Assembly: GCA_964634935.1 (NCBI GenBank)
Contig: CAZWJT010000003.1
Span: 52,323-116,322, forward strand
Origin: an uncultured Planctomycetia bacterium
GTDB lineage: Bacteria > Omnitrophota > Gorgyraeia > Duberdicusellales > Duberdicusellaceae
Length of the DNA: 64,000 nucleotides
Reading direction: 5' to 3'
Within the stretch, counting starts at the first letter, position 1. Every line of letters starts with the position of its first letter. Positions 2-52,014 of the stretch are shown in pieces. The position numbers and the translations under genes were made by a program. The notes below the pieces were generated by a model. The model ran no database searches. It was not told the DNA's origin and saw only the letters and a list, made by a program, of their open reading frames with translations.

Positions 2-784
2 ATGAATTGTACCGTCTCCACCGGATGTACCGCCGGAACGGATTCACTAGGGTTTTCCTATGAGTTGATCCGCGACGGTAAACAGGATATTATTATTGCC
101 GGAGCTACCGAGGCGCCGGTATGCCCAATCACATTTGGGGCTTTTGATGTTGTTAACGTTTTGGCCAAGAATAACGATGATCCCCATAAGGCAAGTCGGC
201 CATTTGACAATAAGCGCAATGGGTTTGTTATCTCTGAAGCCGCTGGTATTTTGATACTCGAAGAACTTGAACATGCGAAGAAAAGAAAAGCGAAAATTTA
301 TGGAGAGATTGTTGGCTACGGAACAAGTTGTAACGCATACCACATGACCGATCTTCCCGAAGATGGAGAAGCGATGGAACGGTGCATCAATGATGCCATC
401 GTGGATGCCAAGATTGAGAAAGAAGAGATTGATTATATTAATGCCCATGGTTCCTCTACCCGCCAGAACGATGTTTTTGAAACAAACGCGTATAAGGCGG
501 TTTTTGGAAAGCATGCTTATGCCGTTCCTATCAGTTCCGTGAAATCTATGATTGGACATCCTTTGGCCGCCGCGAACGCCGTGGAGAGCGTACTCTGTGC
601 AATGATCTTTCAACGCGGATATCTTCCGCCCACCATTAATCAGGAGGAGTCAGATCCAAAATGTGATTTAGACTATATCCCGAATGTAAAGCGGGAGGGA
701 AGGCCGCGATATATTTTAAAGACAAGCAGTGGTTTTTCAGGCATTCATTCCTCAATCATCTTTAAACGATGGGAGTGCGTATGA
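2..784 (+). CDS. beta-ketoacyl synthase, KS-alpha-like (5' end outside window)
   Basis: C-terminal two thirds of a KAS I/II fold: GCTAGTDSLG, catalytic His motifs INAHGSST and KSMIGHPLAAANAVE; ORF open at window start; stop overlaps next start (ATGA at 781-784). Confidence 0.85.
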   Translation: MNCTVSTGCTAGTDSLGFSYELIRDGKQDIIIAGATEAPVCPITFGAFDVVNVLAKNNDDPHKASRPFDNKRNGFVISEAAGILILEELEHAKKRKAKIYGEIVGYGTSCNAYHMTDLPEDGEAMERCINDAIVDAKIEKEEIDYINAHGSSTRQNDVFETNAYKAVFGKHAYAVPISSVKSMIGHPLAAANAVESVLCAMIFQRGYLPPTINQEESDPKCDLDYIPNVKREGRPRYILKTSSGFSGIHSSIIFKRWECV

Positions 785-2016
785 ACGAACGAGTTGCCAT
801 AACCGGGATGGGGGTAGTTTCGCCCGCTGGTTTAAAAAAAGAAACTGTCTGGGCAAATTTAAAGCGGGGCAGTTCTTTTGTCGATGAGATTACGAGATTT
901 GATGCAACACTTTATCCTTCCCGGATAGCAGGGCAAGTGCATGAGTTGGACTGTTATTCACATCTGCCCAGCCGGCTGGTGAAAAAGATAGATGTATTTT
1001 CGCATCTGGCTTTAGTGGCGAGCGAACAAGCGTTGCAGGATGCCCGCTTAGACCTTGAGGGAATCGATAAGCGCAGAGTGGGAGCTTTTATGGGAAACGC
1101 TTTGGGCGGCTGGCTTTTTGCTGAGACAGAATTGCGCGATCTTTACATTGAGGGCCGTGAGGGTGTGTCTCCATATATGGCATCCGCGTGGTTTGCCGCT
1201 GCCCCACAAGGGCAAATTACGATTTACTATGGGTTTAAGGGATACAGTAAGACAATAGTGGCGGACCGGGCGTCTTCCGCTTTTGCGATCTGGTATGGAG
1301 CCAGGGTTATCCAGGAAAATAAGAATGATTATGTCCTTGCCGGTGGCATGGAGGCGCCAATTACTCCTTATGCTCTGCTCTGTGCAAACACATGCGGTAA
1401 TCTTTCCAAGAACAACCTTACTCCCAAAAAGGCTTATAAACCCTATGATCTGTACCGAGACGGCTTTGTGTTGGCAGAAGGGGCCGGGATTGTTATGTTA
1501 GAGAAAGAAAGTCATGCTAGTGCCCGCAAGGCGCGGAGTTACGGATATATTTCCGGGGTTGGTTTTTCTTCCGACGGACACCACTATATGCGTCCAAGTC
1601 TTTCTTCCGATGCCCTGGAATATGCGATTGAGGAATGTTTGCGAGATTCCGGATGGAACAAAAAGGACATAGATTATATCTGTTTGGATGGAGAGGCAAC
1701 TCCTTTGGGTGATCTGGTGGAGACCAAGGCATTAAAGGCTGTTTTTGGGAAAGAGTTGAGTCACATTGCGTTAAGCGCCCCAAAGAGCATGTATGGGAAT
1801 CTTTTGGGAGCTCAGGCAGCGTTGGATTTAATCACCACGGTTCTTTCCATGAACAACAGTCTTGTGTTGCCCACGGTGAATTACGAAATGCCAGATCCGG
1901 ATTGTGATTTAGATTATACTCCGCTTAAGGCCCGCGAGAAGAAAATTCAGAAATCGTTGATTCTTACGCGCGGTCGTGGCGGAATAAATGTTGTTCTCGC
2001 TCTTGAGCGCGATTAG
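781..2016 (+). CDS. ketosynthase paralog lacking active-site Cys (chain-length-factor / KS-beta-like)
   Basis: Full-length KS fold (ITGMGVVSPAG N-terminus) but the position aligned to TACSS reads DRASS, no Cys; translationally coupled to the upstream KS; start moved to ATG 781 (GGGAG RBS) rather than 769. Confidence 0.72.
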   Translation: MNERVAITGMGVVSPAGLKKETVWANLKRGSSFVDEITRFDATLYPSRIAGQVHELDCYSHLPSRLVKKIDVFSHLALVASEQALQDARLDLEGIDKRRVGAFMGNALGGWLFAETELRDLYIEGREGVSPYMASAWFAAAPQGQITIYYGFKGYSKTIVADRASSAFAIWYGARVIQENKNDYVLAGGMEAPITPYALLCANTCGNLSKNNLTPKKAYKPYDLYRDGFVLAEGAGIVMLEKESHASARKARSYGYISGVGFSSDGHHYMRPSLSSDALEYAIEECLRDSGWNKKDIDYICLDGEATPLGDLVETKALKAVFGKELSHIALSAPKSMYGNLLGAQAALDLITTVLSMNNSLVLPTVNYEMPDPDCDLDYTPLKAREKKIQKSLILTRGRGGINVVLALERD

Positions 2017-2038
2017 AAGTTTGAAAAAGGAGGAAGGT

Positions 2039-2272
2039 ATGGATTTACGCGATGAAGTACTGCAGAAAATTTGCGAGACTCTGGATGTTGATGAAAAAGA
2101 GCTTACCGTGGACAAAAAACTTTACGATTCTATCGGTGTTGATTCAACGGAAATGGTCGAACTCACCGTTGCTTTAAGTAAGCATTTCGGAGTACAGATT
2201 GCGGCCCATGAAATGACTAAGTTTTCAACCCCCCTTGATATTATTGCGCTGATTGGGAAAAAGAGAGCTTAA
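2039..2272 (+). CDS. acyl carrier protein
   Basis: 78 aa, DSIGVDSTEMVEL phosphopantetheine-attachment Ser motif; AAGGAGGAAGG RBS 5 nt upstream of ATG 2039 (ORF-track start 1988 lacks RBS). Confidence 0.8.
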   Translation: MDLRDEVLQKICETLDVDEKELTVDKKLYDSIGVDSTEMVELTVALSKHFGVQIAAHEMTKFSTPLDIIALIGKKRA

Positions 2273-2275: not shown

Positions 2276-3091
2276 ATGACTTTGATTGACTTAAGTCTTC
2301 CGATCGACGAAAAAGCCTTTGAGGTGCACAAAGTTGAGGTTGAGCGTATTTCGCATGGCGATGGAGTTGAGAAATTCAATCGAGTTATCATGGGGAAAAC
2401 TTTTCAAGGGAAACTGGCTTATTGGTTTGGCAAACGCATTATTCAGAAAAAAGATTTACCTGACGGCGAGTTTCTTTCGTTAGAAATCGTGCATGCCCCT
2501 GTGCACGTTGGCACGCATTTAGACTATACATTTCATTACGGTTCCTCTTCAGAAGAGCGGCCGTCAAAAACAGCTGAAGAGATTCCGCTGGAATGGTGCT
2601 ATCAGAGCGGCGTAAAACTCGATTTTACCCACAAAAAGCCGCAAGAGGTCATTACTGCAGGAGATGTGAAGGCAGCGCTTGAAAAGATCCGGTATACACT
2701 CCGGGATTTTGATATCGTTCTTTTTCATACCGGCGCCAGCGCTCTCTATGGCAGCCCAAGGTATTTTTCTGATTACCCAGGGGTTGATATAACTGCTATT
2801 GATTATCTGCTTGACCGGGGTGTTAAAATTTTTGGCGTTGATACGATGGGTATTGACCGGCCTTACAAATTTATGCTGGGAGAGTTTTTGAAGACGAAGG
2901 ATCCAAAACGATTTTATCCCGCTCATTTCTATGGTCGGAAGCGGGCATTCATCCATATTGAGCGCTTGGCATGTTTGGAAAAACTTCCCAGCTTTGGTTT
3001 CAAGATCATTTGTTTTCCGATCAAGATCAAATGTACGGGAGCTGCCTGGGCTCGCGTGGTGGCGCTCTGTGACTCTTCGGCGTGTCTGTAA
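2276..3091 (+). CDS. cyclase-family protein (kynurenine-formamidase-like 'putative cyclase')
   Basis: HAPVHVGTHLDYTFH = HxGTHxD metal-binding motif of the cyclase family; located directly after KS/CLF/ACP. Confidence 0.7.
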   Translation: MTLIDLSLPIDEKAFEVHKVEVERISHGDGVEKFNRVIMGKTFQGKLAYWFGKRIIQKKDLPDGEFLSLEIVHAPVHVGTHLDYTFHYGSSSEERPSKTAEEIPLEWCYQSGVKLDFTHKKPQEVITAGDVKAALEKIRYTLRDFDIVLFHTGASALYGSPRYFSDYPGVDITAIDYLLDRGVKIFGVDTMGIDRPYKFMLGEFLKTKDPKRFYPAHFYGRKRAFIHIERLACLEKLPSFGFKIICFPIKIKCTGAAWARVVALCDSSACL

Positions 3092-3118: not shown

Positions 3119-3559
3119 ATGGCTCATACCGTTAATAGAATCGTGATCGATGCGCCCTATGAAAAAGTATTTGCGATGAGCAACGATATTGCTCGCTGGA
3201 AGGATTTTTTTGATGAATATACTGCGTCCGAAGTGCTTTCTCATGAGGGGAACAAGATTCTTTTTAAGCTTACTCATACCAATGGTACCAGTTGGCAATC
3301 CTACCGCCTGCTTTTTCCCGAAGAAAGATTTACCTATGCCGAACGGCTTACTCCCTTGTTCCCTTTTGCGTATATGAAAATTATCTGGCTGTATCGCCAA
3401 ACTTCCTCGGGAGTTGAGATGACCTGGATCCAAGATTTTACAATGGACAAGCAGGCTAAGTTTACGGATACGCAAGTAGAGGAAATGATGAACAAACATT
3501 CCGGAGAAAATCTGAAACGTTTCAAAGAAATTATCGAGAAAGAGGCGAAAGCGCCATAA
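3119..3559 (+). CDS. SRPBCC-superfamily polyketide cyclase/dehydrase-like protein
   Basis: 146 aa, N-terminus IVIDAPYEKVFAMSNDIARWKDFF typical of Polyketide_cyc2/START fold; strong RBS AAGGAGGAAAAAG upstream. Confidence 0.6.
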   Translation: MAHTVNRIVIDAPYEKVFAMSNDIARWKDFFDEYTASEVLSHEGNKILFKLTHTNGTSWQSYRLLFPEERFTYAERLTPLFPFAYMKIIWLYRQTSSGVEMTWIQDFTMDKQAKFTDTQVEEMMNKHSGENLKRFKEIIEKEAKAP

Positions 3560-4686
3560 TGAAAAAAAGCACTTTTCTTCTTCTCTGTATTGAAGGAGCG
3601 GTGTTGTCTTTTAATGTAGCAGCCTGCGTCGCGCTTATCCCCCAGATTGCGTCAACGTTCCAAGTCGAGCAATTCATCGCGGGCAGACTGACCTGGATTT
3701 ATATGCTTCCTTACGGTGTTGCCGCCTTGGTTTATGGTCCGCTGATTCGGATTGTTGACGCAAAAAAAGTAGAGTGTATTTGTATTCTGTTTTTTGCGTG
3801 CAGTAATTTTTTTGCAGCAACCTCCCAGACAATCGAAGCCCTTTTTATCTCTCGGTTTTTCATGGGCTTGTCCGGTGCGTCGGTTATCCCTCTCGGACTT
3901 ATCCTTATTGCTCAGGAAGTAAAGTCGAGAGAGCGAGGGAAGTATGTCGGCTTTTTTTTCAGCGCGACATTTATCGCTTCATTAATTGGTCTTGTGTTAA
4001 GCGGTTTTGTTCCATGGAGAAATCTTTTCCTTATCCCCGCAGTTTCTGGATTTCTACTCTTTTTTGGCATGGTTTCCTGGTTACCAAATTTTGGCGTACT
4101 ACCGGGACAAAAGGTATTCCGCTATTGGCAGAGCTTTCAGCACAAAGGAGTTCGTCTGGTGTTTTTCTATATTTTTTTTATCAGCATGTTTTACCATGGA
4201 GTTCAGCAATGGCTCGGAGTATATTTTTCGCAGGGATACCTTTTCAATCAAATGACAATCAGCTTACTTGTGACCTTAACGAGTTTTAGCGGTATATTTG
4301 GTGAGGCCATTGGAGGGTATCTCTCCGATCTTATCGGCCGGATACCGACGATTAATCTTGGTATTCTCTGCATGATCGCTGGACTTGTTCTTTTACTGGT
4401 ACGCTTGCCGCTTTTTCTGCTTATACTTCCGATGCTCTTGTGGGGTTTTGGCTGGACGTTGAATCACGCCGGCGTTTCTACTGTGCTTACGGATCTACCC
4501 GGAAATCTTGTCCATGAGGCGGCAAGCCTTAACAGCGGTATTCGATTTTTGTCTGGAGGTATTGGTACGGTTATTGGCGGAATTATTTTACAGAAGAGTT
4601 TTTCACTGGGTTTTCTTCTGTTTGGCGTATGCTTGTTGTTCTTATATATGGCGCACGACCATTTTTTACGCATTCAAAAGGCATAA
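3559..4686 (+). CDS. MFS-type membrane transporter
   Basis: 375 aa, about 10-12 hydrophobic helices, Gly-rich inter-helix loops; ATGA overlap with previous gene. Confidence 0.5.
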   Translation: MKKSTFLLLCIEGAVLSFNVAACVALIPQIASTFQVEQFIAGRLTWIYMLPYGVAALVYGPLIRIVDAKKVECICILFFACSNFFAATSQTIEALFISRFFMGLSGASVIPLGLILIAQEVKSRERGKYVGFFFSATFIASLIGLVLSGFVPWRNLFLIPAVSGFLLFFGMVSWLPNFGVLPGQKVFRYWQSFQHKGVRLVFFYIFFISMFYHGVQQWLGVYFSQGYLFNQMTISLLVTLTSFSGIFGEAIGGYLSDLIGRIPTINLGILCMIAGLVLLLVRLPLFLLILPMLLWGFGWTLNHAGVSTVLTDLPGNLVHEAASLNSGIRFLSGGIGTVIGGIILQKSFSLGFLLFGVCLLFLYMAHDHFLRIQKA

Positions 4687-4704: not shown

Positions 4705-5478
4705 ATGGATGAATTACGAGGGAAAGTAGCGATTGTTACCGGAGCAAGCCGCGGCATCGGTAAAGCGCTCGCGTCGACTGCCGCGAGTCTTGGTATTACC
4801 CTAAGTATTGCCGCGCGGCAGGAAAGTCCTCTTCGGGATACCGCAGAAGAAATTTCCAAAAAACATAAGGTGAAAGTGCTTCCTGTTGTCTGCGATGTGA
4901 CCAAGCTTGAGGACTTGGAAAACCTGGTTGCTAAAACCAAAGCAGAGTTCGGCAGGGTTGACATTTTAATCAATAATGCCGGCGTATCAAGCCAATACCC
5001 GTTTCCTCAGCAGCCCCTTGCTGATTTTGAGAAGCTTGCCCACACGAACTATTTAGGATATGTGCGCCTGATCCGTTTAGTTATTGAAGAGATGATTGAG
5101 AGAAAATCTGGCGCGATTATTAATATGGTTTCTGGTTCAACGCTTTGTGATCCTGTTCCCAGGAATTTTATTGTGTATAGCTCTCTCAAAGTGGGTTTAC
5201 GCGCTTTCAGCAAAGGGTTATTCTGGGAATTGCGCGACTGCGGTATCAAAGTAACTTCCATTCTACCTGGGGTTACCGATACGGATCTTACGGGAAAATT
5301 GCAAGAAATAACGGCTGATACAAGCCGTTTGATGACTACAGAAGCGATTGAGAATGCGCTTCGTTTTGCATTGACTGTTCCGGCAAATGTTTGTCCTCTC
5401 GAGATTGCGGTTATTAATCAGCAGACACCTTGGACAAAGCCGGTTATTCCTTATACACAGGCGCATCCAAAACAATAA
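4705..5478 (+). CDS. SDR-family oxidoreductase (ketoreductase-like)
   Basis: TGASRGIGKA Rossmann motif, NNAG, YSSLK catalytic YxxxK. Confidence 0.85.
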   Translation: MDELRGKVAIVTGASRGIGKALASTAASLGITLSIAARQESPLRDTAEEISKKHKVKVLPVVCDVTKLEDLENLVAKTKAEFGRVDILINNAGVSSQYPFPQQPLADFEKLAHTNYLGYVRLIRLVIEEMIERKSGAIINMVSGSTLCDPVPRNFIVYSSLKVGLRAFSKGLFWELRDCGIKVTSILPGVTDTDLTGKLQEITADTSRLMTTEAIENALRFALTVPANVCPLEIAVINQQTPWTKPVIPYTQAHPKQ

Positions 5479-5505
5479 CCAGTTATTCCGAAAATGGAGG
5501 AAGAA

Positions 5506-6966
5506 ATGAAAATTCTATTTGTCATGCCAAAAGTCGGTGCCTGGGCTACTCATGGACAACATCGGGCTCCAAATCAGCTCTACGCACAGTGGGCAGCCTA
5601 TGTGCGAGAAAAAGGATACGATAATCTGGAAGTGCTTGATTGTCGAGCTTTAAATATTTCTCCAGAAGAAATGGTTGAGAAGGTAAAAGCAGCAAAGCCA
5701 ACGATTGTAGTTCTCGGTGACATGCTCCATTCGTACGGCGGCTACGCGATTGTTTGGTATTTTAACGATACTGCGCGGCGAATCAAACAAGCGCTCCCCC
5801 AGGTAACCATTATTATGGGCGGATTATGGTATTCAGCAACACCGCAACAGACTATGGAGGAGAATCCGGCGGTTGACTTTGTGGTTATGGGCGAAGAGGA
5901 ATCATTCTATGATCTGCTTGCGGCTTTGGACAAAAAGAAGAACCTGAAAGATGTGGCAGGGGTGAGCTCCCGGATAGAAGGAAAAGTTTTTCTGGGCCCT
6001 CATAAACCGCTGCTTATGGATTTGAATAGTTTACCGCTTCCAGCTTATGATTTATTCCCGATGGATACTTACGTGGGACACACTCACTGGAAGCCGTTTG
6101 TAGAAATGGTGACTTCCCGGGGTTGCCCTTCTGCGTGTACATTTTGCTACGAATGGGATCAATACGACCCGCGTCATCCGGAAGACTTTCTTAAGTGGCG
6201 GGCTAAATCTCCAGAGCGCGTGATCGAAGAGCTCGAATTACTCCACAAAAAATTCGGCACAAAAGTGGTTGTTATTCAAGATGACAACTTTAACGTAGAT
6301 GCGAAAAGAGTCGAGCGCTTCTGTTTGTTGAAGAAAGAAAAAAATAATCCGATTAAATGGGTTTCGCTCGGTCGGGCGGTTGATTGGATTAACTGTGAAC
6401 AGATTTTGCCACTGATGAAAGAAACAGGCTTATTCACTGGTGTGTTTGGTATTGAAGTTACCACCGAGGAAGAGTTAAAGAAGATTGCAAAAGGGATTAC
6501 CATCGCCCAAATCAAGAAAACCGTAGAAATTTTACGAAAGAATAATGTTGCGGTTGTCGCTGATATCATGATGGGGTTTGACTACGACAATGAACAAATC
6601 ATTAAGCAACGTTTTGAATTTACCGATGAAGTCGATCCAGACATCCTTTGGATTGGGTATGTTACGCCAGCCCCGAATTCTCCAATGTGGAGGATTGGCC
6701 TGAAGAAGGGGTGGATTGATCCGAAGAAGATCGATTTTCTGAAATGGGATTTTTTACATCCAGTAACCCCGACCGACTACCTCTCAACCGAAGATTTGGG
6801 CAGGCTTGGGGCGTGGTGTATGCGGGAATTTTTCTCAAAGCCGGGGAGAATCCAAAGGATTATGACCAGCAATTTTGATCCGCTGGCAAAACTTTGTTTC
6901 CAGGATGTTATGCAGGGAGTGAGCGCCTGGGAAGAAGGAGCAGTCAAAGGAAAAAAACATATCTAG
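5506..6966 (+). CDS. B12-binding-domain radical SAM enzyme
   Basis: N-terminal cobalamin-binding-like domain followed by CPSACTFC (CxxxCxxC) radical SAM cluster motif; GGAGGA RBS favours ATG 5506 over 5494. Confidence 0.8.
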   Translation: MKILFVMPKVGAWATHGQHRAPNQLYAQWAAYVREKGYDNLEVLDCRALNISPEEMVEKVKAAKPTIVVLGDMLHSYGGYAIVWYFNDTARRIKQALPQVTIIMGGLWYSATPQQTMEENPAVDFVVMGEEESFYDLLAALDKKKNLKDVAGVSSRIEGKVFLGPHKPLLMDLNSLPLPAYDLFPMDTYVGHTHWKPFVEMVTSRGCPSACTFCYEWDQYDPRHPEDFLKWRAKSPERVIEELELLHKKFGTKVVVIQDDNFNVDAKRVERFCLLKKEKNNPIKWVSLGRAVDWINCEQILPLMKETGLFTGVFGIEVTTEEELKKIAKGITIAQIKKTVEILRKNNVAVVADIMMGFDYDNEQIIKQRFEFTDEVDPDILWIGYVTPAPNSPMWRIGLKKGWIDPKKIDFLKWDFLHPVTPTDYLSTEDLGRLGAWCMREFFSKPGRIQRIMTSNFDPLAKLCFQDVMQGVSAWEEGAVKGKKHI

Positions 6967-7003: not shown

Positions 7004-7918
7004 ATGATTTGTGATTTTCACATACATTTTATTCCTCAGGTTATCGCTGAGCACACATCTTTCTTCCGGGGTGTTTGGTCGGATAAAGCCAGGCTCCTTG
7101 ATTTTTTACGGACGAATAACATCGGGAAAGCTCATCTTGTGTATCCGGCGACGGATGCCCATAGAACACTTGGGGCTGTTGAACTTTGTAAAATTTATAA
7201 CGAAGAGGTGCTGCGCTTTGCCTGCGAAACCGGGGGAGTCGTTCTTCCTTCCGGTATTGTGGATGTTTCACAGGGCGAAGATAAAATTATTTCTGCCATT
7301 GACGAACTCAAGAAGCAAGGTTTTCGAAGCATCTCGCTCGCATCGAGCTATGAAGGGAAATACATCACGGAAAAATTAAAGCTTATTTGTCGCAGGATAG
7401 CCGAACACAACCTTACGCTTTTTGTACATCCCCAGGTTGCCAATCCTGTCGGATTTGATCGGGTACAAGATCCATTGCTCATGCCGGTTCTGGAATATAG
7501 TTTCGATGTTTCCTTGTGTTTTGGCTTATGTATGGTTTCAGGCATTTTTTCCGAAGAACAGAATCCGAAAATAGTTTTTTCTTCGTTAGGCGGAGTCATT
7601 CCATTCTTGCGTGATCGTTTCGACAGCGTCTATATGATGCTCCGCGGCCGGAATATGGTTGAGGATCTAGGAGCGCTTCCTTCGCAGCTCTTAAAGAAAG
7701 CGTATATCGATATTGCGGGCGTGCAGTCTCGCGATATCCTGGCATGTGCGCTCAATCTTTTTTCCGAGGACCACATTCTGTTTGCTTCGGATTATCCAGC
7801 TCAACAAAATATCATGGGCCAGCTGGAGTCTTTCTCTGGACTTTCTCAGGTCGCGCGCGAGAAAATATTAAGCAGAAATTTCTTAAAGTTATTATGCGAT
7901 GATGAAGCTGTACTCTAA
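7004..7918 (+). CDS. amidohydrolase-2 family TIM-barrel metal-dependent hydrolase/decarboxylase
   Basis: N-terminal CDFHIHFIP metal-ligand motif typical of amidohydrolase_2 (ACMSD-like) proteins; about 300 aa. Confidence 0.5.
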   Translation: MICDFHIHFIPQVIAEHTSFFRGVWSDKARLLDFLRTNNIGKAHLVYPATDAHRTLGAVELCKIYNEEVLRFACETGGVVLPSGIVDVSQGEDKIISAIDELKKQGFRSISLASSYEGKYITEKLKLICRRIAEHNLTLFVHPQVANPVGFDRVQDPLLMPVLEYSFDVSLCFGLCMVSGIFSEEQNPKIVFSSLGGVIPFLRDRFDSVYMMLRGRNMVEDLGALPSQLLKKAYIDIAGVQSRDILACALNLFSEDHILFASDYPAQQNIMGQLESFSGLSQVAREKILSRNFLKLLCDDEAVL

Positions 7919-8723
7919 CGGATCTTTTTCCTCCGAAGGCAACCCTAAAGAGCTGCTGGAACCAGGTTTTTTGTTTGGTTGGGGAGTTTTTGAAACCATC
8001 CGCGTTTATCAGCGAAAGCCAGCTTTTCTTTCCGAGCATGTTCAGCGTTTGGAAAAAAGTTGTCGTAAGTTATTCTTGGAGTTTCCTGATTGTTGTATTC
8101 CCTCGATTTTGGAAAAGCTGCTTGATGAAAATCAGCTCGACGACGCGTATTGCCGGGTTACTGTCTATAAAAGACGGGAAGGGGCGGGTATCCTTATTCA
8201 TGTTGCCCCGTTCGCCTATTATCAATCCGGTGAATCTGACCAGGGAGTAAGCGCAGTTATCGCGCCTTTTCGCAGATACTCGGCAAATCCATTCTTAGGG
8301 CTTAAATTGATCAGCTATTGCGAGAACCGGATTGCTTGGAGAATCGCCCAGGATAAAAAGGCTGAAGAGGCACTGATGCTCAACGAGAATGATTTTCTGA
8401 CAGGAGGATCCCGGAGCAGCATATTCTTTGTCAAAGATGGGGTATTATGTACGCCATCTCTTGCCTGCGGGGTATTCCCCGGAATTACCCGGGAGCGCGT
8501 ATTGGCGATCAGTAAAAGAATCGGGCTCTTTTGTAAAGAAGGAGAATTTAAGCCCGAAGATTTAACGAAGGCCCAGGAAGTATTTCTTACGAGTTCTTTG
8601 ATGGAAATTATGCCTCTGGTGTATATCCAAGGCTGCGCTTTTACAGCAAAAAACCCAGGTATTTGGACAAAAAAACTACACTCTTTATATTTGGAAGAAA
8701 TAAACAATGCCCACGCAGTTTAG
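7899..8723 (+). CDS. class IV aminotransferase-fold protein, aminodeoxychorismate-lyase-like
   Basis: 274 aa, GxGVFETIRV N-terminal motif and overall length typical of PabC/ADC lyase rather than BCAT. Confidence 0.6.
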   Translation: MMKLYSNGSFSSEGNPKELLEPGFLFGWGVFETIRVYQRKPAFLSEHVQRLEKSCRKLFLEFPDCCIPSILEKLLDENQLDDAYCRVTVYKRREGAGILIHVAPFAYYQSGESDQGVSAVIAPFRRYSANPFLGLKLISYCENRIAWRIAQDKKAEEALMLNENDFLTGGSRSSIFFVKDGVLCTPSLACGVFPGITRERVLAISKRIGLFCKEGEFKPEDLTKAQEVFLTSSLMEIMPLVYIQGCAFTAKNPGIWTKKLHSLYLEEINNAHAV

Positions 8724-9615
8724 AAGCCCGCTTTTATTTCCGGTTTCAATGAGTCAGGGGATCATCAAGGTGCTTGATGAAACCAAGCTGCCTTTTATCG
8801 AAGAGTACACATGTGTTAAAACCCTTTCTGAGGCTCTGACAGTGCTTGGTTCGATGAAAACTCGTTCCTTGGGACAAGTTCTTCTTTTTTTCTATGCGTG
8901 CGTTGTGCTTGCTGACGCTGATGCGCGGAAGATCGCGCAAGAATTTCATGCAACGCGTCCGACTTTTGACTTTATGACTCTTGCGGAAATTCTTGAGCAA
9001 ATTGAACAAAAGACAAAAAGCCGCCAGAAAGCAGTAGAGTTATTCCTGCACAAGTTCGATCAAGCACGCAAGACGCGGGCGGAGCGGCTTGCCTTTAAAT
9101 TACCAAATCCAGCGAAAGTTTTGACAATTTGCAATATTAACGGAGAGCTGCTCTACCTCGAGCAGGCATTGCGTGCCCAAGGAAAAGAATCCATTTTTTA
9201 TGTTGCAGAAACCAGACCATACTTGCAGGGTAGTCGGCTTTCTTTCTGGGAACTTACGAAAGCTTGCGTTCCTTGTCGTCTTCTCTGCGATAACCAAATT
9301 GCCTGGTGTATGAAGGAGAAAATGGTAAATTGTGTTGTGAGTGGTGCGGACCGAGCCTCCCGGCAAGGCGGAATTGTGAATAAAACCGGGACCTATGCTC
9401 TTGCCGTACTCAGTAAGCATTTTGGCATTCCCTTTTACGCATTCACTCAGTATCCCAAGGATATTGATATCAGTAAGGTGGAAATCGAGGAACGCAACAG
9501 CGAGGAGATTTTTATGTTTTGTGGGGATCTCAAAGTTTCCGATGGGATCTATCCCGCGTTCGATATCATTCCGGGTGAATACGTTACCGAACAGATAATT
9601 CTGGAGGGATTATGA
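8707..9615 (+). CDS. eIF-2B/MtnA-family sugar-phosphate isomerase (methylthioribose-1-P / 5-deoxyribose-1-P isomerase-like)
   Basis: VSGADRASRQGGIVNKTGTYALAVLSKHFGIPFYAF and PAFDIIP C-terminal signature of MtnA/eIF2B family. Confidence 0.75.
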   Translation: MPTQFRSPLLFPVSMSQGIIKVLDETKLPFIEEYTCVKTLSEALTVLGSMKTRSLGQVLLFFYACVVLADADARKIAQEFHATRPTFDFMTLAEILEQIEQKTKSRQKAVELFLHKFDQARKTRAERLAFKLPNPAKVLTICNINGELLYLEQALRAQGKESIFYVAETRPYLQGSRLSFWELTKACVPCRLLCDNQIAWCMKEKMVNCVVSGADRASRQGGIVNKTGTYALAVLSKHFGIPFYAFTQYPKDIDISKVEIEERNSEEIFMFCGDLKVSDGIYPAFDIIPGEYVTEQIILEGL

Positions 9616-10088
9616 AACTAAGAGATCTTCATAATGGAATTATTATTTGGGGCGTGCCCGGGGAAGAGTTATTCCTTTTTTTGGAAACTTGTTCTGGCCT
9701 CTGCATTCTTCCGGAGATGCGCCCTTCCGGTATTGGATTACGGATTAATAGAGAGATATGCAACATCCGGAATATCCCATTCTGCGTTTGTACCGACAAC
9801 ATGCTTGGTAATCTTTTCTTTCAGAAAAAAATAAAGCAGGTAGTCGTGTTTTCTATGAAGGAGGAGAAAGAAAATATTGTTTGTTTTCCGGGTACATTTA
9901 CCCTTTTGATGCTGGCAAGATTGCATTCCGTTCCAGTGAAATTGCTTCCGGCAGGATTGTTTCAAAAAGATGTCCTTATCGATAAAGATGCGCAGACTAT
10001 TTCCGGCAAGCCTCTGGTAGAACAATTGAAGCAGGAGTTTCTTTTTTCTCAGGAATCTGAGATAATATCCCGAAAGGAGTTTGCATGA
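9612..10088 (+). CDS. degenerate eIF-2B/MtnA-like C-terminal domain protein
   Basis: 158 aa; VVVFSMKEEKENIVCFPGTFTLLMLARLHSVPV aligns by eye to the VVVSGADRA...GTYALAVLSKHFGIPF block of the upstream gene but lacks the Asp; ATGA-coupled. Confidence 0.35.
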   Translation: MKLRDLHNGIIIWGVPGEELFLFLETCSGLCILPEMRPSGIGLRINREICNIRNIPFCVCTDNMLGNLFFQKKIKQVVVFSMKEEKENIVCFPGTFTLLMLARLHSVPVKLLPAGLFQKDVLIDKDAQTISGKPLVEQLKQEFLFSQESEIISRKEFA

Positions 10089-11074
10089 AGTTTTCCGAGC
10101 AAAGGAAAGAGTTTATTTTCTGGGCAAAACTTTTAAATGAAAGAGGTTTTGTCACTGCCCGCAGCGGCAATATTTCGTATCGGGTGGGCTCAAATGAATT
10201 GTTAATAACGTCGCACAATAGTTATTTAGGGAGTTTAGCCAACGAGGATATTCTGCTTACGGATATATCCGGAAATCTTCTGGAGGGTCAAGGTGAACCA
10301 ACTTCAGAAAAAGAATTGCACCTTACCCTCTACAGGGTTTTTCCGGATACCCAGGTTGTGTTGCATGCCCATTCCCCTTTTTCTACGGCGTTTTTCTACT
10401 ACCATAAACTTCTTCCTGTATTTTCATTCGAAGCAGAGTTTTATCTCGGGAAAATTCCGGTTGTCGACCAAATAACTCCCACTGTGACAGAACTTACTCC
10501 GGTGCTACAGGCTTTCGGAAAAAATAATATCATTGTATTACGCCGCCATGGGGTTGTAGCAAAAGGGTCAACGTTTCGGGAGGCATTTTCGCTCATTGAG
10601 CTCTTGGAAGAGCAAGCCCGAGTCGGGTTGATGATTTATGCCAGCCGTTCTGGCGTTTTTCCTGATTCATCTCAACCGGCTCAGCAGAGAGAGAAAAAAA
10701 CCTATGTATTATTATCGCAGGAACATATCCAGAAGCTCACGGAGATCATTAATTCGGACAGCGAAGCGCAAGCGCTGGGGAGAAAGTATAATTTAACCAT
10801 GACGTTTGCGATTAAGAATCAGGATACCGGGCAGAGCGCCGGGTTTACCTATGACCAAGGTAAGATTACCAAGACTAGCAGTGGAGAGGATGCCGAGTTT
10901 ATGATTATTGGTTCGGCTGATATTCTGCGCAAAGTATTTAATAGAGAATTAGATCCATTCGTCGCACTCACGCAGGGTAAGGTTCGGTCAAAAGGCGATT
11001 TTTCTAAGATGAGCAAGTGGTATCCAGTGATGGTGCGGACATTCCAGCTTTGGGAACAAGCGCCAGTCGAATAG
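10085..11074 (+). CDS. class II aldolase/adducin-family protein fused to a C-terminal SCP2 sterol-carrier-like domain
   Basis: N-terminal RSGNISYRV...HAHSPFSTAF (MtnB/FucA-type zinc aldolase fold); C-terminal about 110 aa with GKVRSKGDFSKMSKW typical of SCP2. Confidence 0.7.
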   Translation: MKFSEQRKEFIFWAKLLNERGFVTARSGNISYRVGSNELLITSHNSYLGSLANEDILLTDISGNLLEGQGEPTSEKELHLTLYRVFPDTQVVLHAHSPFSTAFFYYHKLLPVFSFEAEFYLGKIPVVDQITPTVTELTPVLQAFGKNNIIVLRRHGVVAKGSTFREAFSLIELLEEQARVGLMIYASRSGVFPDSSQPAQQREKKTYVLLSQEHIQKLTEIINSDSEAQALGRKYNLTMTFAIKNQDTGQSAGFTYDQGKITKTSSGEDAEFMIIGSADILRKVFNRELDPFVALTQGKVRSKGDFSKMSKWYPVMVRTFQLWEQAPVE

Positions 11075-11092
11075 CGTTCATTCAGGAGGATT

Positions 11093-12529
11093 ATGCGCGA
11101 ATATAAATACTATATGGAAGGAAGATTCTTGGGTTCTTCCGAGAAGAGTCTCGTTTTCGACCCATTCTTAGAAGAACCTTTTGCCGAAATTTCTTACACG
11201 CAGATTTCTCAACTGTCGCAGGCTGTGTTTTGTGCGCGTGAAGCTTATCGGCTGTGGTCAAAAAGGTCTTTTGCCGAACGGGCAAAATTATTGAAGGATA
11301 TTGCTCAGATCATTCTCGAGAATCTCCGTGAGCTTGCAGAACTCGAAACAAAAGAAATCGGAAAACCCTTGAAAGAAAGCCTTTTTGTCGATATTCCCCT
11401 CGCCGCCGAAGTTTTTTCTTATTATGCTTCTTTTTTAGAGCGGCTTGAGGAACGCACTCAGCAAACCGGAAGCACGATCGACATTTTTGAATATAAACCA
11501 TACGGCGTATGCGGGATTTATCTGCCGTATAACGTTCCATTAATGATTTTTGGTTTTACTGCGGCTGCGGCGCTTGCCGCCGGAAATGCAGTCATCATCA
11601 AACCTTCAGAATATGCGTCGTTGTCTCTGCTGCGCCTTACGGAATTACTGGATTTGCTTTCTCTTCCTAAGGGGCTTATTCAAGTGGTGACTGGGAGGGG
11701 CGATGAACTTGGACATGCGTTTGCCGAACAGGATATAGATCTTATTTCTTTTACCGGCTCGCGGGAAACATTGGGAAAGGTTGTCGCGGCGTCAGCAAAA
11801 AATCCTAAAAAGATTATCTGCGAACTCGGCGGGGCTAATTGTACTGTTGTATTTCAAGACGCCGATCTTCTCGAAGCGGAACAGAATATTTTAGGTTCGT
11901 CATTCATGAAACAAGGGCAAATTTGTATTGGGACAAGCATCGCCCTAGTTGAAGAAAATATCTATGATTCATTTGTCCCCCGCCTTGTTGAAAAAACAAA
12001 GAAAATTACCCTGGGCAATCCCTTTGAGCCGGCTGTGGGTTTAGGTCCTCTTGTTTCACAACAGCACCGCAGCAATGTTGAACAAAAGGTTGCGCAACTT
12101 CTCAAAACGCAAGGAAAACTTCTCTGCGGAGGCGTGATCCCGAGACAAAAAGGCTATTTTTATCCAGCTACAATTATTGAATTATCCAGCATGCTCTACG
12201 AAGAGTTTTTCGCTCCAGTTCTACTTGTTTATAAATTCAAAGATTACAACGAAGCGCTCAAAATCGTTTCCCAGAATCCTACAGGGCTTGTTTGTCAAAT
12301 CTGGACAAAAGACCTGGAGAAAGCGCGAACGTTTGCTTCAAGTGCTGAAGCCGGGACTGTCTGGATTAATACCTTTGCCCAAATGTCCGCAAAAACACCT
12401 TTTGGTGGTTTTCGGCAGAGTGGTTTTGGCCGGAATTTGGGGGAGGAAGGATTTTTTGAATATGTGCAAACCAAACATACCGGGATTGGATTTGACAAGA
12501 GTCCAGTTTCTGGCTGGTTCGGGTTATGA
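11093..12529 (+). CDS. NAD(P)-dependent aldehyde dehydrogenase
   Basis: ALDH family: ELGGANCTVV (catalytic Cys region), FTGSRETG, GQICIGTS. Confidence 0.85.
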   Translation: MREYKYYMEGRFLGSSEKSLVFDPFLEEPFAEISYTQISQLSQAVFCAREAYRLWSKRSFAERAKLLKDIAQIILENLRELAELETKEIGKPLKESLFVDIPLAAEVFSYYASFLERLEERTQQTGSTIDIFEYKPYGVCGIYLPYNVPLMIFGFTAAAALAAGNAVIIKPSEYASLSLLRLTELLDLLSLPKGLIQVVTGRGDELGHAFAEQDIDLISFTGSRETLGKVVAASAKNPKKIICELGGANCTVVFQDADLLEAEQNILGSSFMKQGQICIGTSIALVEENIYDSFVPRLVEKTKKITLGNPFEPAVGLGPLVSQQHRSNVEQKVAQLLKTQGKLLCGGVIPRQKGYFYPATIIELSSMLYEEFFAPVLLVYKFKDYNEALKIVSQNPTGLVCQIWTKDLEKARTFASSAEAGTVWINTFAQMSAKTPFGGFRQSGFGRNLGEEGFFEYVQTKHTGIGFDKSPVSGWFGL

Positions 12530-12586
12530 GCGAAAAGAGTTGACAAGATAAGATTATTTCATAAAATCTATACTACTTTCTCATAT

Positions 12587-12662
12587 GGGGACGTCGTTTA
12601 GCCCGGTTCAAGACCCCTGCCTGTCACGCAGGTGATCGTGGGTTCAAATCCCATCGTCCCCG
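12587..12662 (+). tRNA. tRNA-Asp (anticodon GTC)
   Basis: 76-nt cloverleaf: acceptor GGGGACG/CGTCCCC, anticodon stem CCTGC/GCAGG with loop CTGTCAC, T-loop GGTTCAAATCC. Confidence 0.85.
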
Positions 12663-12735
12663 TTTATCCGAGATCGATAGAATCTGATAGACTATGGGTT
12701 CGCCATAAACCGCCTAACAGGACGATAGCTCCTAA

Positions 12736-13401: not shown

Positions 13402-13779
13402 ATGAAAAAGGAAAGGGTAAAAACGCTTGAAGAACGTCGGAAATTTCCACGTTTGGATACTTCGGTCGATGTTTCATACTCGTTGCTCGATCGGGTCCCT
13501 AAAAAAGCGACTACTTCAAAAAATATCAGCGCCGGCGGCATTTGTCTTATCGTTTATGAGGATGTTCAGTTAGGCGCTGGAATGTCACTTTTAATTAAAA
13601 TACCAGATGAGCCGGATCAGATTCACGTCAAAGGGAAAGTTGTCTGGAAGAACGAATTTAGCGTAAGCACGGATACGCGAAAGCGATACGAACTGGGGAT
13701 TGAGTTTTCCGAAATGGGAATTTTTGATCAAGAAAGATTGCAGCAGCATATTTTTACGTTTCTTCGGAAAAAACCCTGA
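13402..13779 (+). CDS. stand-alone PilZ-domain (c-di-GMP-binding) protein
   Basis: RRKFPRLD (RxxxR) and NISAGGICL (D/NxSxxG) PilZ motifs. Confidence 0.7.
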   Translation: MKKERVKTLEERRKFPRLDTSVDVSYSLLDRVPKKATTSKNISAGGICLIVYEDVQLGAGMSLLIKIPDEPDQIHVKGKVVWKNEFSVSTDTRKRYELGIEFSEMGIFDQERLQQHIFTFLRKKP

Positions 13780-13811: not shown

Positions 13812-14945
13812 ATGGCGGATAAAGTAATAACATTGGCAGGCAAGCCGCGAAAAACCACGCTCTATGATCAACATAGATTGTGTGGCGCGAAGATCGTGGA
13901 TTTTCATGGATGGCTTATGCCGGTTGAATATACCGGCATTCTTGAAGAGGCGAAGGCTGTGCGTTCGACCTGCGGTTTGTTTGATATTTCGCACATGGGG
14001 ACAATAGAAGTACGCGGGGCGGAAGCGTGTCGGTATTTACAGTATATTCTTTCAAACGATATTGCGCAGATCGAAGATGGGCAAGTCCAATATAATCTTT
14101 TTTGTGATGCAGATGGCGGGATTATCGACGACTTGATGGTTACCCGTGTATCCGATAAGTTTTTTTGCGTTGTGAACGCTTCAAACAGTAAAGAAGATTT
14201 TTCCTGGATGCTCAAAAACAAGACGGGATTTGATGTGGAGATTATTGATCAAAGCCAAAAGCGGTCTTTCCTTGCATTACAAGGGCCTTTAGCCGAAGTT
14301 ATTTTGAAGCAGTCTCTCAATATCGACGTTCACGGTTTACCGTATATGCATGCGATGGAATGTTCTTGGCAGGGAGCAAAGATTTTTCTTTCTCGCACCG
14401 GATATACCGGGGAAGATGGGTTCGAGTTTTTTGTGGATCATGCTTCTGCTCAAAAGATTTGGGAAATTCTTTTAAGTTTCCAAAGGCGTTCGGAATTAAA
14501 ATTATGCGGTTTGGGGGCGAGAGATATCCTACGACTCGAAATGGGATATACACTTTATGGGAATGAAATCAGTCTTTCCACGAATCCATTTGAAGCCGGC
14601 CTAGGGTGGGCTGTGGCGATGAAGAAAGGAGCGTTTATCGGCCAGGGTGCGCTCTCTTGTATTTTGAAAAAAGGTTTATCCCGGAAGAGAATCGGATTTT
14701 TTATGGAGGAGCGCGGGATGCCCCGGCAAGGGTATCCTTTTGTATCTGATAGTGGTCTTGCGATCGGGACGGTAACGAGCGGCGGTTTTTCTCCAAATCT
14801 TAATAATTTTATTGGCATGGGATATATTGCAAATGAACACCTGCAAAATAATCAGGAAATTTTTGTCTCAATACGCCAGAAAAATCATCAGATCAAAATA
14901 CGCCAACTGCCTTTCTGGGCTGCTCGTACCAGGCATCACGGGTAG
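13812..14945 (+). CDS. gcvT: glycine cleavage system T protein (aminomethyltransferase)
   Basis: Full-length GcvT fold (HMGTIEVRG, TGYTGEDGFE), first of gcvT-H-PA-PB order. Confidence 0.9.
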   Translation: MADKVITLAGKPRKTTLYDQHRLCGAKIVDFHGWLMPVEYTGILEEAKAVRSTCGLFDISHMGTIEVRGAEACRYLQYILSNDIAQIEDGQVQYNLFCDADGGIIDDLMVTRVSDKFFCVVNASNSKEDFSWMLKNKTGFDVEIIDQSQKRSFLALQGPLAEVILKQSLNIDVHGLPYMHAMECSWQGAKIFLSRTGYTGEDGFEFFVDHASAQKIWEILLSFQRRSELKLCGLGARDILRLEMGYTLYGNEISLSTNPFEAGLGWAVAMKKGAFIGQGALSCILKKGLSRKRIGFFMEERGMPRQGYPFVSDSGLAIGTVTSGGFSPNLNNFIGMGYIANEHLQNNQEIFVSIRQKNHQIKIRQLPFWAARTRHHG

Positions 14946-14982
14946 AGAAGGCTTTTTGAAAGAGAATTGAGAAGGAGGATGT

Positions 14983-16697: not shown

Positions 16698-16699
16698 TT

Positions 16700-51913: not shown

Positions 51914-52014
51914 GCGAACCCGATTTTCAGCCTAAAAAAACACTATCTCCAAGTAAACAGCTAGCGTATAATATATGATACTGAGTAAATGATATTTTTG
52001 AAGGAGTGGAGGAT

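Follow-up and report, generated by a model that had tools for sequence, protein, structure and literature searches.

A radical SAM-associated lipid/polyketide operon of Candidatus Omnitrophota ends in a candidate sugar-phosphate branch with a two-part MtnA-like isomerase and an SCP2-fused aldolase

Why should a bacterial lipid/polyketide operon end in genes that resemble those for handling deoxypentose phosphates derived from S-adenosylmethionine (SAM)? The question is raised by a 64,000-nucleotide stretch of DNA from an uncultured bacterium of the Omnitrophota (contig CAZWJT010000003.1, positions 52,323 to 116,322; hereafter the window). According to the window's list of open reading frames (ORFs), positions 8707-12529 hold four co-directional, tightly packed ORFs on the + strand, which encode the following:

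8707..9615, + strand: IF2B_L, an MtnA-like isomerase of a short-loop clade, 302 aa (PF01008 IF-2B, 122 bits, E 3.8e-35; Cys142 at 9130-9132, Asp215 at 9349-9351)
9612..10088, + strand: IF2B_S, a half-size, non-catalytic IF-2B paralog, 158 aa (no Pfam match; identified by hhalign; Rossmann half only)
10085..10654, + strand: class II aldolase domain of AldII-SCP2, the whole protein being 329 aa at 10085-11074 (PF00596 Aldolase_II, 126.5 bits, E 1.4e-36; E75, H94, H96, H155)
10694..11074, + strand: SCP2 domain of AldII-SCP2, residues 204-329 plus the stop codon (PF02036, 27.4 bits against a cutoff of 21.3)
11093..12529, + strand: NAD(P)-dependent, acid-forming aldehyde dehydrogenase (ALDH), 478 aa, the last gene of the operon (PF00171 Aldedh, 442 bits, E 2.3e-132)

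The initial annotation had read this run as three overlapping + strand genes of a candidate dihydroxyacetone phosphate (DHAP) shunt. Pfam places the IF-2B, Aldolase_II and Aldedh families at the coordinates that it gave, but the fourth gene (9612-10088) and the SCP2 domain had been missed. The strand is as described and there are indeed 4-nt overlaps at the IF2B_L/IF2B_S and IF2B_S/aldolase junctions, but an 18-nt gap precedes ALDH. From gene content, catalytic residues, fold, synteny, clade structure and gene fusions, we infer the enzymatic steps, the direction of flux and the nature of a substituent, X, on the pentose. The best explanation of these observations is that the four genes are the sugar-phosphate branch of a conserved operon, which is linked elsewhere to envelope-lipid export genes. 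As far as sequence can tell, the module probably performs phosphorylase, isomerase, aldolase and ALDH chemistry on a SAM-derived pentose-1-phosphate.

The first enzyme of the run is related to MtnA but distinct from it. In an alignment of 17 sequences, T. maritima MtnA included, the catalytic and phosphate-binding motifs of MtnA are invariant in IF2B_L: C142 (T-x-C-N), D215 (GADR), R53, R84-P-T, ETRPYLQG (E168) and NKxGTY (N225). Both NCBIfam models of MtnA are matched well below their cutoffs (PRK05720, 157 bits vs 271; TIGR00512, 144 vs 279), with the same outcome for the L008 ortholog. The scores on ribose-1,5-bisphosphate isomerase (TIGR00511, 82 bits vs 314), eIF2B alpha (47 vs 339) and eIF2B delta (44 vs 249) are lower still; a grouping with these families, which would have spoken against the initial annotation, is not seen. 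The 120 best relatives of IF2B_L share 51-61% identity and are 290-323 aa long; the named ones come from Candidatus Omnitrophota metagenome-assembled genomes (MAGs), with one from Desulfofervidaceae. A HMMER search of 1.84 billion cluster representatives with the isomerase returned 1519 relatives at E <= 1e-10, of which only 27 reach E <= 1e-30. A deletion of 7 residues immediately behind the catalytic Cys is common to the top-scoring representatives (motif THCN[VI]SGE). The window protein has a spacing of 28 residues from T-x-C-N to ETRP, as do the 20 of the 23 highest-scoring representatives in which the motif could be located. Nearly all lower-scoring representatives carry the canonical CN[AT]GxLATxxxGTALG with a spacing of mostly 35 (range 33-41); the sole exception, P0395, has a spacing of 28 and is a truncated protein of 271 aa. 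The short-loop proteins, among them those of the window, L008, L023 and L032 and the fused forms described below, are monophyletic in 95 of 100 neighbour-joining bootstraps (102 sequences). The placement near MtnA proposed initially is thus upheld by score, but in the tree the protein belongs to a clade of its own, separate from T. maritima MtnA. A 3-residue and an 18-residue deletion additionally mark the Omnitrophota isomerases.

The second gene appears to encode a partner of the first. Residues 30-115 of IF2B_S are homologous to residues 163-249 of IF2B_L, that is, to its Rossmann half (hhalign, 96% probability), while the GADR aspartate is lost and the Cys region is absent entirely. In other lineages the two proteins occur as fused single chains of 467-511 aa (P0361, P0363, P0364, P0367, P0369 and P0375), and this Rosetta-stone evidence argues that IF2B_L and IF2B_S work as one enzyme. 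The possibility that the 158-aa ORF is spurious was ruled out by these fusions, by its homology to the IF-2B Rossmann half and by its conservation in 24 of 27 loci (see below). By its sequence features, IF2B_L/IF2B_S is therefore classed here among the MtnA-like isomerases as a new subfamily that consists of two parts, and not as MtnA itself.

The aldolase domain likewise retains what is needed for its family's chemistry. All 35 sequences compared share N29 (phosphate-binding), E75 (acid/base and metal ligand), H94, H96 and H155, and E75 with the three histidines is equivalent to the Glu76 and His triad described for DrdA (PMC6079011). An AlphaFold (AF2) model of AldII-SCP2 (pLDDT 89.6, pTM 0.81) comprises two domains, with residues 191-203 forming a disordered link between them. 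The folds nearest to the aldolase domain in Foldseek are FucA 2OPI, Aquifex aq_1979 2IRP and DrdA 6BTD (E 1e-13 to 1e-15), with DrdA at an rmsd of 2.2 A, a TMt of 0.83 and 22% identity. All NCBIfam scores fall short of their cutoffs: FucA_Meth is the best match (116 bits vs 250), followed by OtnC (90 vs 250), MtnB (65 vs 137), ribulose-1-phosphate aldolase (57 vs 300) and FucA (41 vs 400). None of the NCBIfam matches bears the name Ald2 or DrdA, and the comparison with cutoffs covers aldolases of the FucA, MtnB, OtnC, AraD and ribulose-1-phosphate types. On sequence and model, the domain is best described as a member of the class II (metal-dependent) aldolase superfamily with a predicted FucA-like fold, which falls short of orthology to any characterised member.

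The C-terminal 126 residues, the SCP2 part, are the best-conserved section of AldII-SCP2. Every family member carries the fusion, including the L032 protein at 32% identity, and PF02036 is precomputed in most of them. Modelled alone (pLDDT 91.3), the domain has only SCP2 domains among its top 46 PDB fold matches; T. thermophilus SCP2 2CX7 is the best (TM 0.83), and UbiJ, the SCP2 domains of alkylsulfatases and the SCP-2L domain of MFE-2 are also found. The ligands of known solved SCP2 examples are sterols, fatty acids, quinone intermediates or alkyl chains, and by family and modelled fold the domain is predicted to bind lipid.

The last enzyme gives the module a likely direction. The ALDH has the general-base Glu in ELGG and the nucleophilic Cys in GQICIG, the signature of a hydrolytic, acid-forming enzyme, while its NCBIfam scores favour no single substrate. 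Because a hydrolytic ALDH sits downstream of the aldolase, flux would run from sugar phosphate to aldehyde to acid. The ligase associated with the module in many other loci is FadD-like, scoring 435 bits on a long-chain NCBIfam model vs 255 bits on acetate-CoA ligase.

How firmly these genes belong together can be judged from other genomes. One genome per GTDB species was scanned with patterns drawn from the aldolase-SCP2 alignment, with a maximum of one locus per isolate, and the cassette proteins were mapped by tblastn onto the 27 loci found, nearly all of them from Candidatus Omnitrophota. Gene order is retained across these species representatives although protein identity is only about 50-60%. 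IF2B_L adjoins the aldolase in 25 of the 27, IF2B_S is present in 24 and ALDH lies 3' of the aldolase in 22. Where contigs are long enough to be informative (24 loci), the same family of B12-binding radical SAM enzyme is encoded about 5 kb or less upstream of the module in 18. The module is thus widespread in Omnitrophota, and relatives occur in MAGs labelled Thermodesulfobacteriota or Desulfofervidaceae.

A phosphorylase, which would provide the entry step, is part of the cassette in many of these loci. A PNP_UDP_1 phosphorylase (PNP; 246 aa in the type B loci defined below) lies directly 5' of the isomerase in 11 of the 27 loci, in type B between the radical SAM gene and IF2B_L, and is also present in L032, L036, L038, L040 and L041. 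Among proteins of solved structure it is closest to the hexameric 5'-methylthioadenosine (MTA) phosphorylase of Sulfolobus solfataricus (1JDS, 97 bits); on NCBIfam it reaches 105 bits with a DeoD-like model, below the cutoff, and 38 bits with the HpnG model, whose cutoff is 187. Where PNP is present, in the sister loci, phosphorylase and isomerase are thus encoded together with class II aldolase and ALDH, and this is the enzyme sequence of the DHAP shunt, of the Drd pathway (PMC6079011) and of fluoroacetate-type pathways, the last including the ALDH. The window itself is different. The initial annotation had noted that no kinase or phosphorylase accompanies the module there, and none was found among the scanned window ORFs, four ORFs of 215-261 aa (52006-52776, 53769-54554, 55428-56174 and 57093-57740) being outside the scan; tblastn with the cassette-type phosphorylase against the whole 64-kb window gave no match either. 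The PNP position is held in the window arrangement by a BCAT-like aminotransferase, which is absent from the arrangements that contain PNP. Amidohydro_2 together with the class IV aminotransferase was considered as a substitute for the phosphorylase and rejected, since L032 carries both Amidohydro_2 and PNP and the two are therefore not equivalents. In a genome of the window type, the entry step must be supplied from elsewhere in the genome or be a different one.

The chemistry assigned at the outset thus appears sound in kind: the MtnA motifs, the class II aldolase ligands and the Glu and Cys of ALDH are intact, and PNP precedes the isomerase in sister loci. Membership in the canonical DHAP shunt or Drd pathway, which the initial annotation had also suggested, is not supported, in view of the widely missed NCBIfam equivalog cutoffs, the short-loop clade, the half-size partner and the SCP2 fusion.

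The four genes are the 3' end of a lipid/polyketide operon that starts upstream of the window and ends at 12529. Its remaining features in the window are as follows:

2..784, + strand: ketosynthase (KS) alpha, 3' part, FabF-like, catalytic Cys-His-His kept (Pfam ketoacyl-synt and Ketoacyl-synt_C; active-site alignment; gene start upstream of the window)
769..2016, + strand: KS partner resembling a chain-length factor (CLF), with Cys->Arg, His->Asp and His->Asn (Pfam; active-site alignment)
1988..2272, + strand: acyl carrier protein (ACP; PF00550)
2276..3091, + strand: PF04199 'putative cyclase' (Pfam; syntenic in sister loci)
3119..3559, + strand: SRPBCC polyketide cyclase/dehydrase-like protein (Pfam; syntenic in sister loci)
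3559..4686, + strand: MFS transporter (Pfam)
4705..5478, + strand: SDR ketoreductase (KR; Pfam)
5494..6966, + strand: B12-binding radical SAM enzyme of an uncharacterised family (PF02310 and PF04055)
7004..7918, + strand: Amidohydro_2 protein (Pfam), with weak likeness to the non-oxidative (hetero)aromatic/dienoate decarboxylases IDCase, ACMSD and LigW
7899..8723, + strand: fold-type IV PLP enzyme, like BCAT, D-amino-acid transaminase or ADC-lyase (Pfam, NCBIfam), in the phosphorylase slot of sister loci
12540..12663, + strand: operon boundary, with a promoter-like TTGACA-16-TAAAAT at 12540-12567 (11 of 12 consensus matches) and tRNA-Asp(GTC) at 12586-12663 (Rfam)

Just upstream of the four-ORF run, neighbouring genes overlap by 17-20 nt. 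No terminator was found after ALDH, where only the promoter-like site and tRNA-Asp lie, and an Rfam search of seven loci at gathering thresholds for riboswitches or other RNA signals returned tRNAs and one group I intron only. The full ketosynthase gene is available in L001 (825-2078) and scores 428 bits on NCBIfam PRK07314 (cutoff 387). An aromatic, actinorhodin-type polyketide synthase (PKS) context was considered and rejected: with a FabF-like KS and an inactive CLF-like partner, the cluster is type II PKS-like or fatty acid synthase-like and no classical aromatic PKS. The B12-radical-SAM enzyme is presumed to be the source of the 5'-deoxyadenosyl moiety. It belongs to a family with 75-84% identity over more than 120 clusters; its best NCBIfam matches, BchE (185 bits vs a cutoff of 481) and HpnJ, are far below cutoff, and a search of solved structures found only distant class B relatives (AprD4, TokK and CysS). 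The initial annotation had remarked on a neighbouring B12-radical-SAM cluster; the gene is there, on the same strand and in the same run, but the relationship is closer than placement beside it, for the module is embedded in a set of lipid/polyketide and export genes and inherited with it.

This co-inheritance is apparent from the gene orders. In type A, that of the window, the order is TIGR04076 protein, KS, CLF, ACP, cyclase, SRPBCC, MFS, KR, radical SAM, Amidohydro_2, aminotransferase IV, IF2B_L, IF2B_S, AldII-SCP2 and ALDH. Type B consists of a FadD-like AMP ligase, radical SAM, PNP_UDP_1, IF2B_L, IF2B_S, AldII-SCP2, ALDH, MMPL (sterol-sensing), LolA-like/DUF1329 and DUF1302, and its radical SAM protein is 45% identical to that of type A. 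The MMPL/LolA-like/DUF1302 exporter trio also stands 3' of several type A loci and is found at 15 or more loci overall. In L032, a contig of 1.6 Mb whose protein is labelled Thermodesulfobacteriota at NCBI, the order is MarR, MMPL, ApbA, TIGR04076, KS, CLF, radical SAM, ACP, cyclase, SRPBCC, MFS, KR, Amidohydro_2, PNP, IF-2B, AldII-SCP2, LolA-like and DUF1302. L038 has PadR, rhodanese, AMP ligase, PNP, IF2B_L, IF2B_S, AldII-SCP2, ALDH, ApbA, TIGR04076, KS, CLF, radical SAM, ACP and cyclase; L036 has radical SAM, PNP and a fused IF-2B; and L035 has a fused IF-2B, AldII and AMP ligase. As the gene set stays together in at least four orders at 32-60% protein identity, the neighbourhood is not due to chance.

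The B12-radical-SAM gene is missing next to the module in 6 of the 24 informative loci (L014, L022, L024, L026, L028 and L031), several of which have envelope-lipid genes as neighbours: lptF/G in L022, lptC/lptB in L028, and ydbH-like plus DUF1318 genes in L024 and L026. L031 (5979-11113) has another radical SAM gene (444 aa, lacking a B12 domain) and an M48 peptidase gene between IF2B_L and IF2B_S. In L014 (24-2693), which has no radical SAM gene at all, and L028 (9260-10996), the phosphorylase is followed directly by aldolase-SCP2 with no IF-2B pair between; either the isomerase gene lies at another place in these genomes or the enzyme is not needed there. Among distant short-loop relatives, the PNP/isomerase pair adjoins an LpxL-like lipid A acyltransferase gene in L040 (263-2922), and genes for a PaaK-like ligase and an ArnT/PMT_2-like transferase in L041 (23-4988).

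Six loci carry an additional pair of genes, a DeoC-family protein that exceeds the LsrF (P-HPD thiolase) equivalog cutoff of NCBIfam (362 vs 297 bits) and a Tdh-like zinc alcohol dehydrogenase (Zn-ADH), either between the aldolase and ALDH or just 3' of ALDH. Coordinates of the LsrF-like plus Zn-ADH pair are:

L003: 12449-14287
L002: 14195-16071
L017: 11118-12950
L024: 7931-9771
L026: 6938-8788

The substrate of LsrF is 3-hydroxy-5-phosphonooxypentane-2,4-dione. By our own reasoning, 5-deoxyribulose-1-phosphate oxidised at C4 would be constitutionally equal to it, and by this analogy the Zn-ADH and the LsrF-like protein could form an undescribed route from 5-deoxyribose to DHAP and acetyl-CoA.

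Several observations on individual loci and on the rest of the window may be added. Mobile elements occur within the cassette: IS200-like transposases flank the MMPL/LolA-like/DUF1302 block in L005 (11039-17530), and a phage-type integrase and small ORFs lie between IF2B_S and the aldolase in L017 (4481-9726). The bacterial MAG contig of L038 has a group I intron (5069-5290; Rfam RF00028, 103 bits) between a tRNA gene and thyA. L023 (JAIWAR010000017.1) is labelled as a Methanosarcinales archaeon and holds an Omnitrophota-type cassette with a radical SAM enzyme that is 81% identical; the contig is probably mis-binned. Some Omnitrophota are reportedly attached to methanogens. The part of the window beyond the operon contains genes for DUF192, PilZ and glycine cleavage/lipoylation as well as an extended surface-glycan locus. 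Two small PilZ proteins are encoded at 13402-13779 and 22430-22798, and 13812-19816 contains a full glycine cleavage set (gcvT, gcvH and split gcvPA/gcvPB), then lipoate-protein ligase and lipoyl synthase. From about 20600 to 63500 runs a single long + strand surface-glycan locus with two NeuB, two CMP-cytidylyltransferases, two UDP-GlcNAc 2-epimerases, deoxysugar enzymes, GT2s, an ABC exporter and at least eight methyltransferases, sugar C-methyltransferases among them, which suggests heavily methylated nonulosonic-acid glycans.

What, then, could the module be doing in a lipid operon? In the route that we propose, the operon's B12-radical-SAM enzyme would consume SAM and yield a 5'-substituted 5'-deoxyadenosine. 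The MTA phosphorylase-like PNP, present in sister loci only, would convert this into adenine and a 5-substituted 5-deoxyribose-1-phosphate; the IF2B_L/IF2B_S pair, a catalytic plus a non-catalytic half-subunit, would produce the ribulose-1-phosphate form; and the class II aldolase would cleave it to DHAP and an aldehyde, X-CH2-CHO. ALDH would then form X-CH2-COOH, an acid that the FadD-like ligase of many sister loci can potentially activate. X would preferably be hydrophobic: like HpnH and MqnE, the radical SAM enzyme would join the 5'-deoxyadenosyl group to its substrate, here a carbon of a lipid or polyketide, and the module would trim the ribose so that a two-carbon (carboxymethyl) extension remains, with the SCP2 domain holding the lipid tail. 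In the pairs HpnH/HpnG and MqnE/MqnB, a radical SAM enzyme next to a PF01048 enzyme adenosylates the substrate and the ribose stays on the product (PMC13459092). A second possibility is plain salvage, in which X is H or SCH3 and the module is a lineage-specific DHAP shunt that clears free 5'-deoxyadenosine, perhaps also MTA, from co-encoded and other radical SAM enzymes. The products would be adenine, DHAP and acetaldehyde, the last oxidised to acetate, or DHAP and acetyl-CoA by way of the ADH/LsrF-like side branch.

Between these two, we slightly prefer the trimming of an adenosylated lipid made by the radical SAM enzyme, though at less than even odds, and salvage is a close competitor. Hints of a hydrophobic X come from the invariant and conserved SCP2 fusion, the FadD-like ligase, the persistent MMPL/LolA-like/DUF1302 genes and the envelope-lipid genes at loci that lack the radical SAM gene. 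A remodelled isomerase loop and an extra subunit would be unexpected if the substrates were those that canonical MtnA and DrdI already handle, and the minimal type B locus also counts for a hydrophobic X, since salvage uses four or five of its ten genes and a single biosynthetic route gives all ten a role. Salvage has in its favour the presence of the full set of phosphorylase, MtnA-like isomerase and class II aldolase, the place of DrdA among the nearest aldolase folds, and the stand-alone modules of L024, L026 and L028. Another point for it is that the 5'-deoxyadenosine set free by class B radical SAM enzymes is inhibitory to them (PMC6079011). The LsrF equivalog beside Zn-ADH in six sister loci, together with our reasoning on its substrate, fits X = H and so favours salvage at the expense of a lipid substrate. 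Several other points also weigh against lipid trimming. No B12 domain is present in HpnH or MqnE, which to our knowledge belong to the only two characterised pairings of a PF01048 enzyme with an adjacent radical SAM enzyme; most class B enzymes are methylases that release free 5'-deoxyadenosine, and we know of no class B enzyme that adenosylates its substrate. The SCP2 fold can be purely structural, as in Eis, the window arrangement itself shows no phosphorylase by tblastn of the 64 kb or among the ORFs scanned, and the loci without the radical SAM gene indicate that the module can function, or at least be inherited, alone. Salvage, for its part, offers no role for an invariably fused and highly conserved SCP2 domain. 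It leaves unexplained the choice of a FadD-like instead of an Acs-like ligase, the position of the isomerase in a clade of its own, with a shortened active-site loop and an additional subunit, and the lasting tie of a general salvage route, through several rearrangements, to a single family of radical SAM enzymes and to genes of envelope-lipid transport; all MtnA, MtnB and FucA equivalog cutoffs are moreover missed.

Other uses of the same enzymes are much less probable. The DeoD-like score of PNP, whose solved relatives accept adenosine and inosine, and the weak match of the aldolase to ribulose-1-phosphate aldolase would suit nucleoside or pentose catabolism, in which ribose-1-phosphate from PNP is isomerised to ribulose-1-phosphate, cleaved to DHAP and glycolaldehyde and oxidised to glycolate, a short form of the non-carboxylating pentose bisphosphate route of halophilic archaea. 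Scavenging is plausible for small Omnitrophota genomes (three closed chromosomes of 1.28-1.82 Mb), but the isomerase scores far better as MtnA than as ribose-1,5-bisphosphate isomerase, the ribulose-1-phosphate aldolase cutoff is distant, and the SCP2 domain and the ties to radical SAM and lipid export are all unexplained, so that we regard this as improbable. A route resembling methionine salvage, in which the aldolase-family protein is an MtnB-type dehydratase of methylthioribulose-1-phosphate and the class IV aminotransferase performs the last transamination to methionine, seems very improbable. Among solved structures, the N-terminal half of the aldolase domain does match the MtnB-like Aquifex aq_1979 best (75 bits), the NCBIfam MtnB model NF006672 gives 78 bits over residues 2-103, and a BCAT-like aminotransferase adjoins; yet both MtnB cutoffs are missed (65 vs 137 and 78 vs 226 bits) with only half of the domain matched, there is no enolase-phosphatase, RLP or dioxygenase, and the aminotransferase is missing from the PNP arrangements, while ALDH, which is superfluous to such a route, is in 22 of the 27 loci. 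We give equally little credence to an anabolic direction, in which the aldolase joins DHAP to a lipid aldehyde and the isomerase and PNP build a 5-alkyl pentose-1-phosphate or a nucleoside-like lipid head group. Class II aldolases and PNPs are reversible, and the SCP2 domain and envelope-lipid neighbours would suit a lipid substrate, but a conserved acid-forming ALDH follows the aldolase, no aldehyde-forming reductase is conserved in the module, and the known precedents run from SAM to DHAP.

The relationship of the module to these precedents is one of shared logic. With the DHAP shunt of Rhodospirillum rubrum and extraintestinal E. coli (MtnP or MtnK, MtnA and Ald2), it shares a phosphorylase, a Cys/Asp isomerase, a DHAP-releasing class II aldolase and a reliance on SAM-derived 5'-deoxynucleosides. 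It differs in its short-loop isomerase clade, non-catalytic half-subunit and SCP2-fused aldolase, in its unmet equivalog scores, in the attached ALDH and, often, FadD-like ligase, and in being set inside a KS/CLF-radical SAM lipid operon with no phosphorylase or kinase found in the window. The Drd pathway of Bacillus thuringiensis (DrdK-DrdI-DrdA; PMC6079011) has the same isomerase and class II aldolase logic and the conserved metal site, but here the kinase is lacking and identity to DrdA is only 22%; conversely, Drd clusters lack the SCP2 fusion, heteromeric isomerase, ALDH and lipid context found here. Since thresholds and loop signature fail, the module is not a demonstrated member of the MtnA, DrdI, Ald2, DrdA, FucA or MtnB families.

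A closer parallel in enzyme content is the fluoroacetate route of Streptomyces cattleya, which comprises a fluorinase, the FlB phosphorylase, 5-FDRP isomerase, a fuculose-phosphate-type aldolase and fluoroacetaldehyde dehydrogenase and is mentioned in PMC6079011. These are the same four enzyme types as in the PNP-containing sister loci, ALDH included, in a pathway-specific and not a housekeeping set. The organisms and sequence clades differ, and the 5'-substituted adenosine here would come from a radical SAM enzyme; no domain of the fluorinase/chlorinase type was present among the ORFs scanned in the window, L008, L028, L032 and L038. HpnH/HpnG and MqnE/MqnB share with the module a radical SAM gene beside a PF01048 gene, a lipid or quinone pathway, the entry of ribose into the product and MMPL/HpnN-like export (PMC13459092). 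The likeness is one of logic only, given the low HpnG score of PNP and the B12-binding, class B nature of the radical SAM enzyme, and those pathways have no counterpart to the isomerase, aldolase and ALDH found here. The upstream half of the operon resembles 'ladderane' cluster I of anammox bacteria in its FabF-derived KS with an inactive partner, dedicated ACP and B12-radical-SAM enzyme. Parts of that cluster include amxACP and the FabF2/FabF-mut heterodimer, and the protein at 769-2016 of the window resembles amxFabF-mut, but TIGR04072 scores only 75 bits here (cutoff 360). A term search in the anammox preprint (bioRxiv 10.64898/2026.05.19.726425) gave no phosphorylase, isomerase or aldolase. 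Surveys that mine biosynthetic gene clusters have recorded 'ladderane'-type clusters in Omnitrophota MAGs (PMC9902471; bioRxiv 10.64898/2026.05.19.726425), which may include this cluster. Among the papers searched, none describes the module, and a 2026 review of lipid-modifying radical SAM enzymes has nothing like it. What is known is therefore the DHAP-shunt or fluoroacetate-type logic; the novelty lies in a short-loop MtnA-like isomerase made of two parts and a class II aldolase with a fused SCP2 domain, both hard-wired to a B12-radical-SAM/KS-CLF lipid operon.

The finding has consequences under either of the two leading explanations. If the module serves salvage, it would show how a candidate phylum of small-genome anaerobes clears toxic 5'-deoxyadenosine, using a structurally distinct isomerase and an SCP2-fused aldolase, and these two enzymes would define new subfamilies among proteins that are now annotated as 'hypothetical', 'MTR-1-P isomerase' or 'fuculose-P aldolase'. 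If it instead trims an adenosylated lipid, hopanoids and futalosine would be joined by a third known example of SAM ribose being built into a product, and DHAP-shunt enzymes would for the first time be seen to serve biosynthesis. In its most complete form, which as a whole is unlikely, the 5'-deoxyadenosyl group would pass from SAM to a carbon of a lipid or polyketide by the action of the B12-radical-SAM enzyme, the module would release DHAP and a lipid acid, and the result, a SAM-derived carboxymethyl homologation of an envelope lipid, would be exported by the MMPL, LolA-like and DUF1302 proteins. Such a transfer could conceivably proceed through an adenosyl-cobalamin intermediate, by analogy to methyl transfer in class B enzymes. 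If true, this would put DHAP-shunt chemistry to a new biosynthetic use and add a reaction type to the repertoire of class B radical SAM enzymes. The minimal seven-gene arrangement (ligase, radical SAM, PNP, IF2B_L, IF2B_S, AldII-SCP2 and ALDH) is small enough for expression and assay, and on either explanation the module offers a handle on the uncharacterised 'ladderane-like' KS/CLF and B12-radical-SAM clusters that are often mined from anoxic environments.

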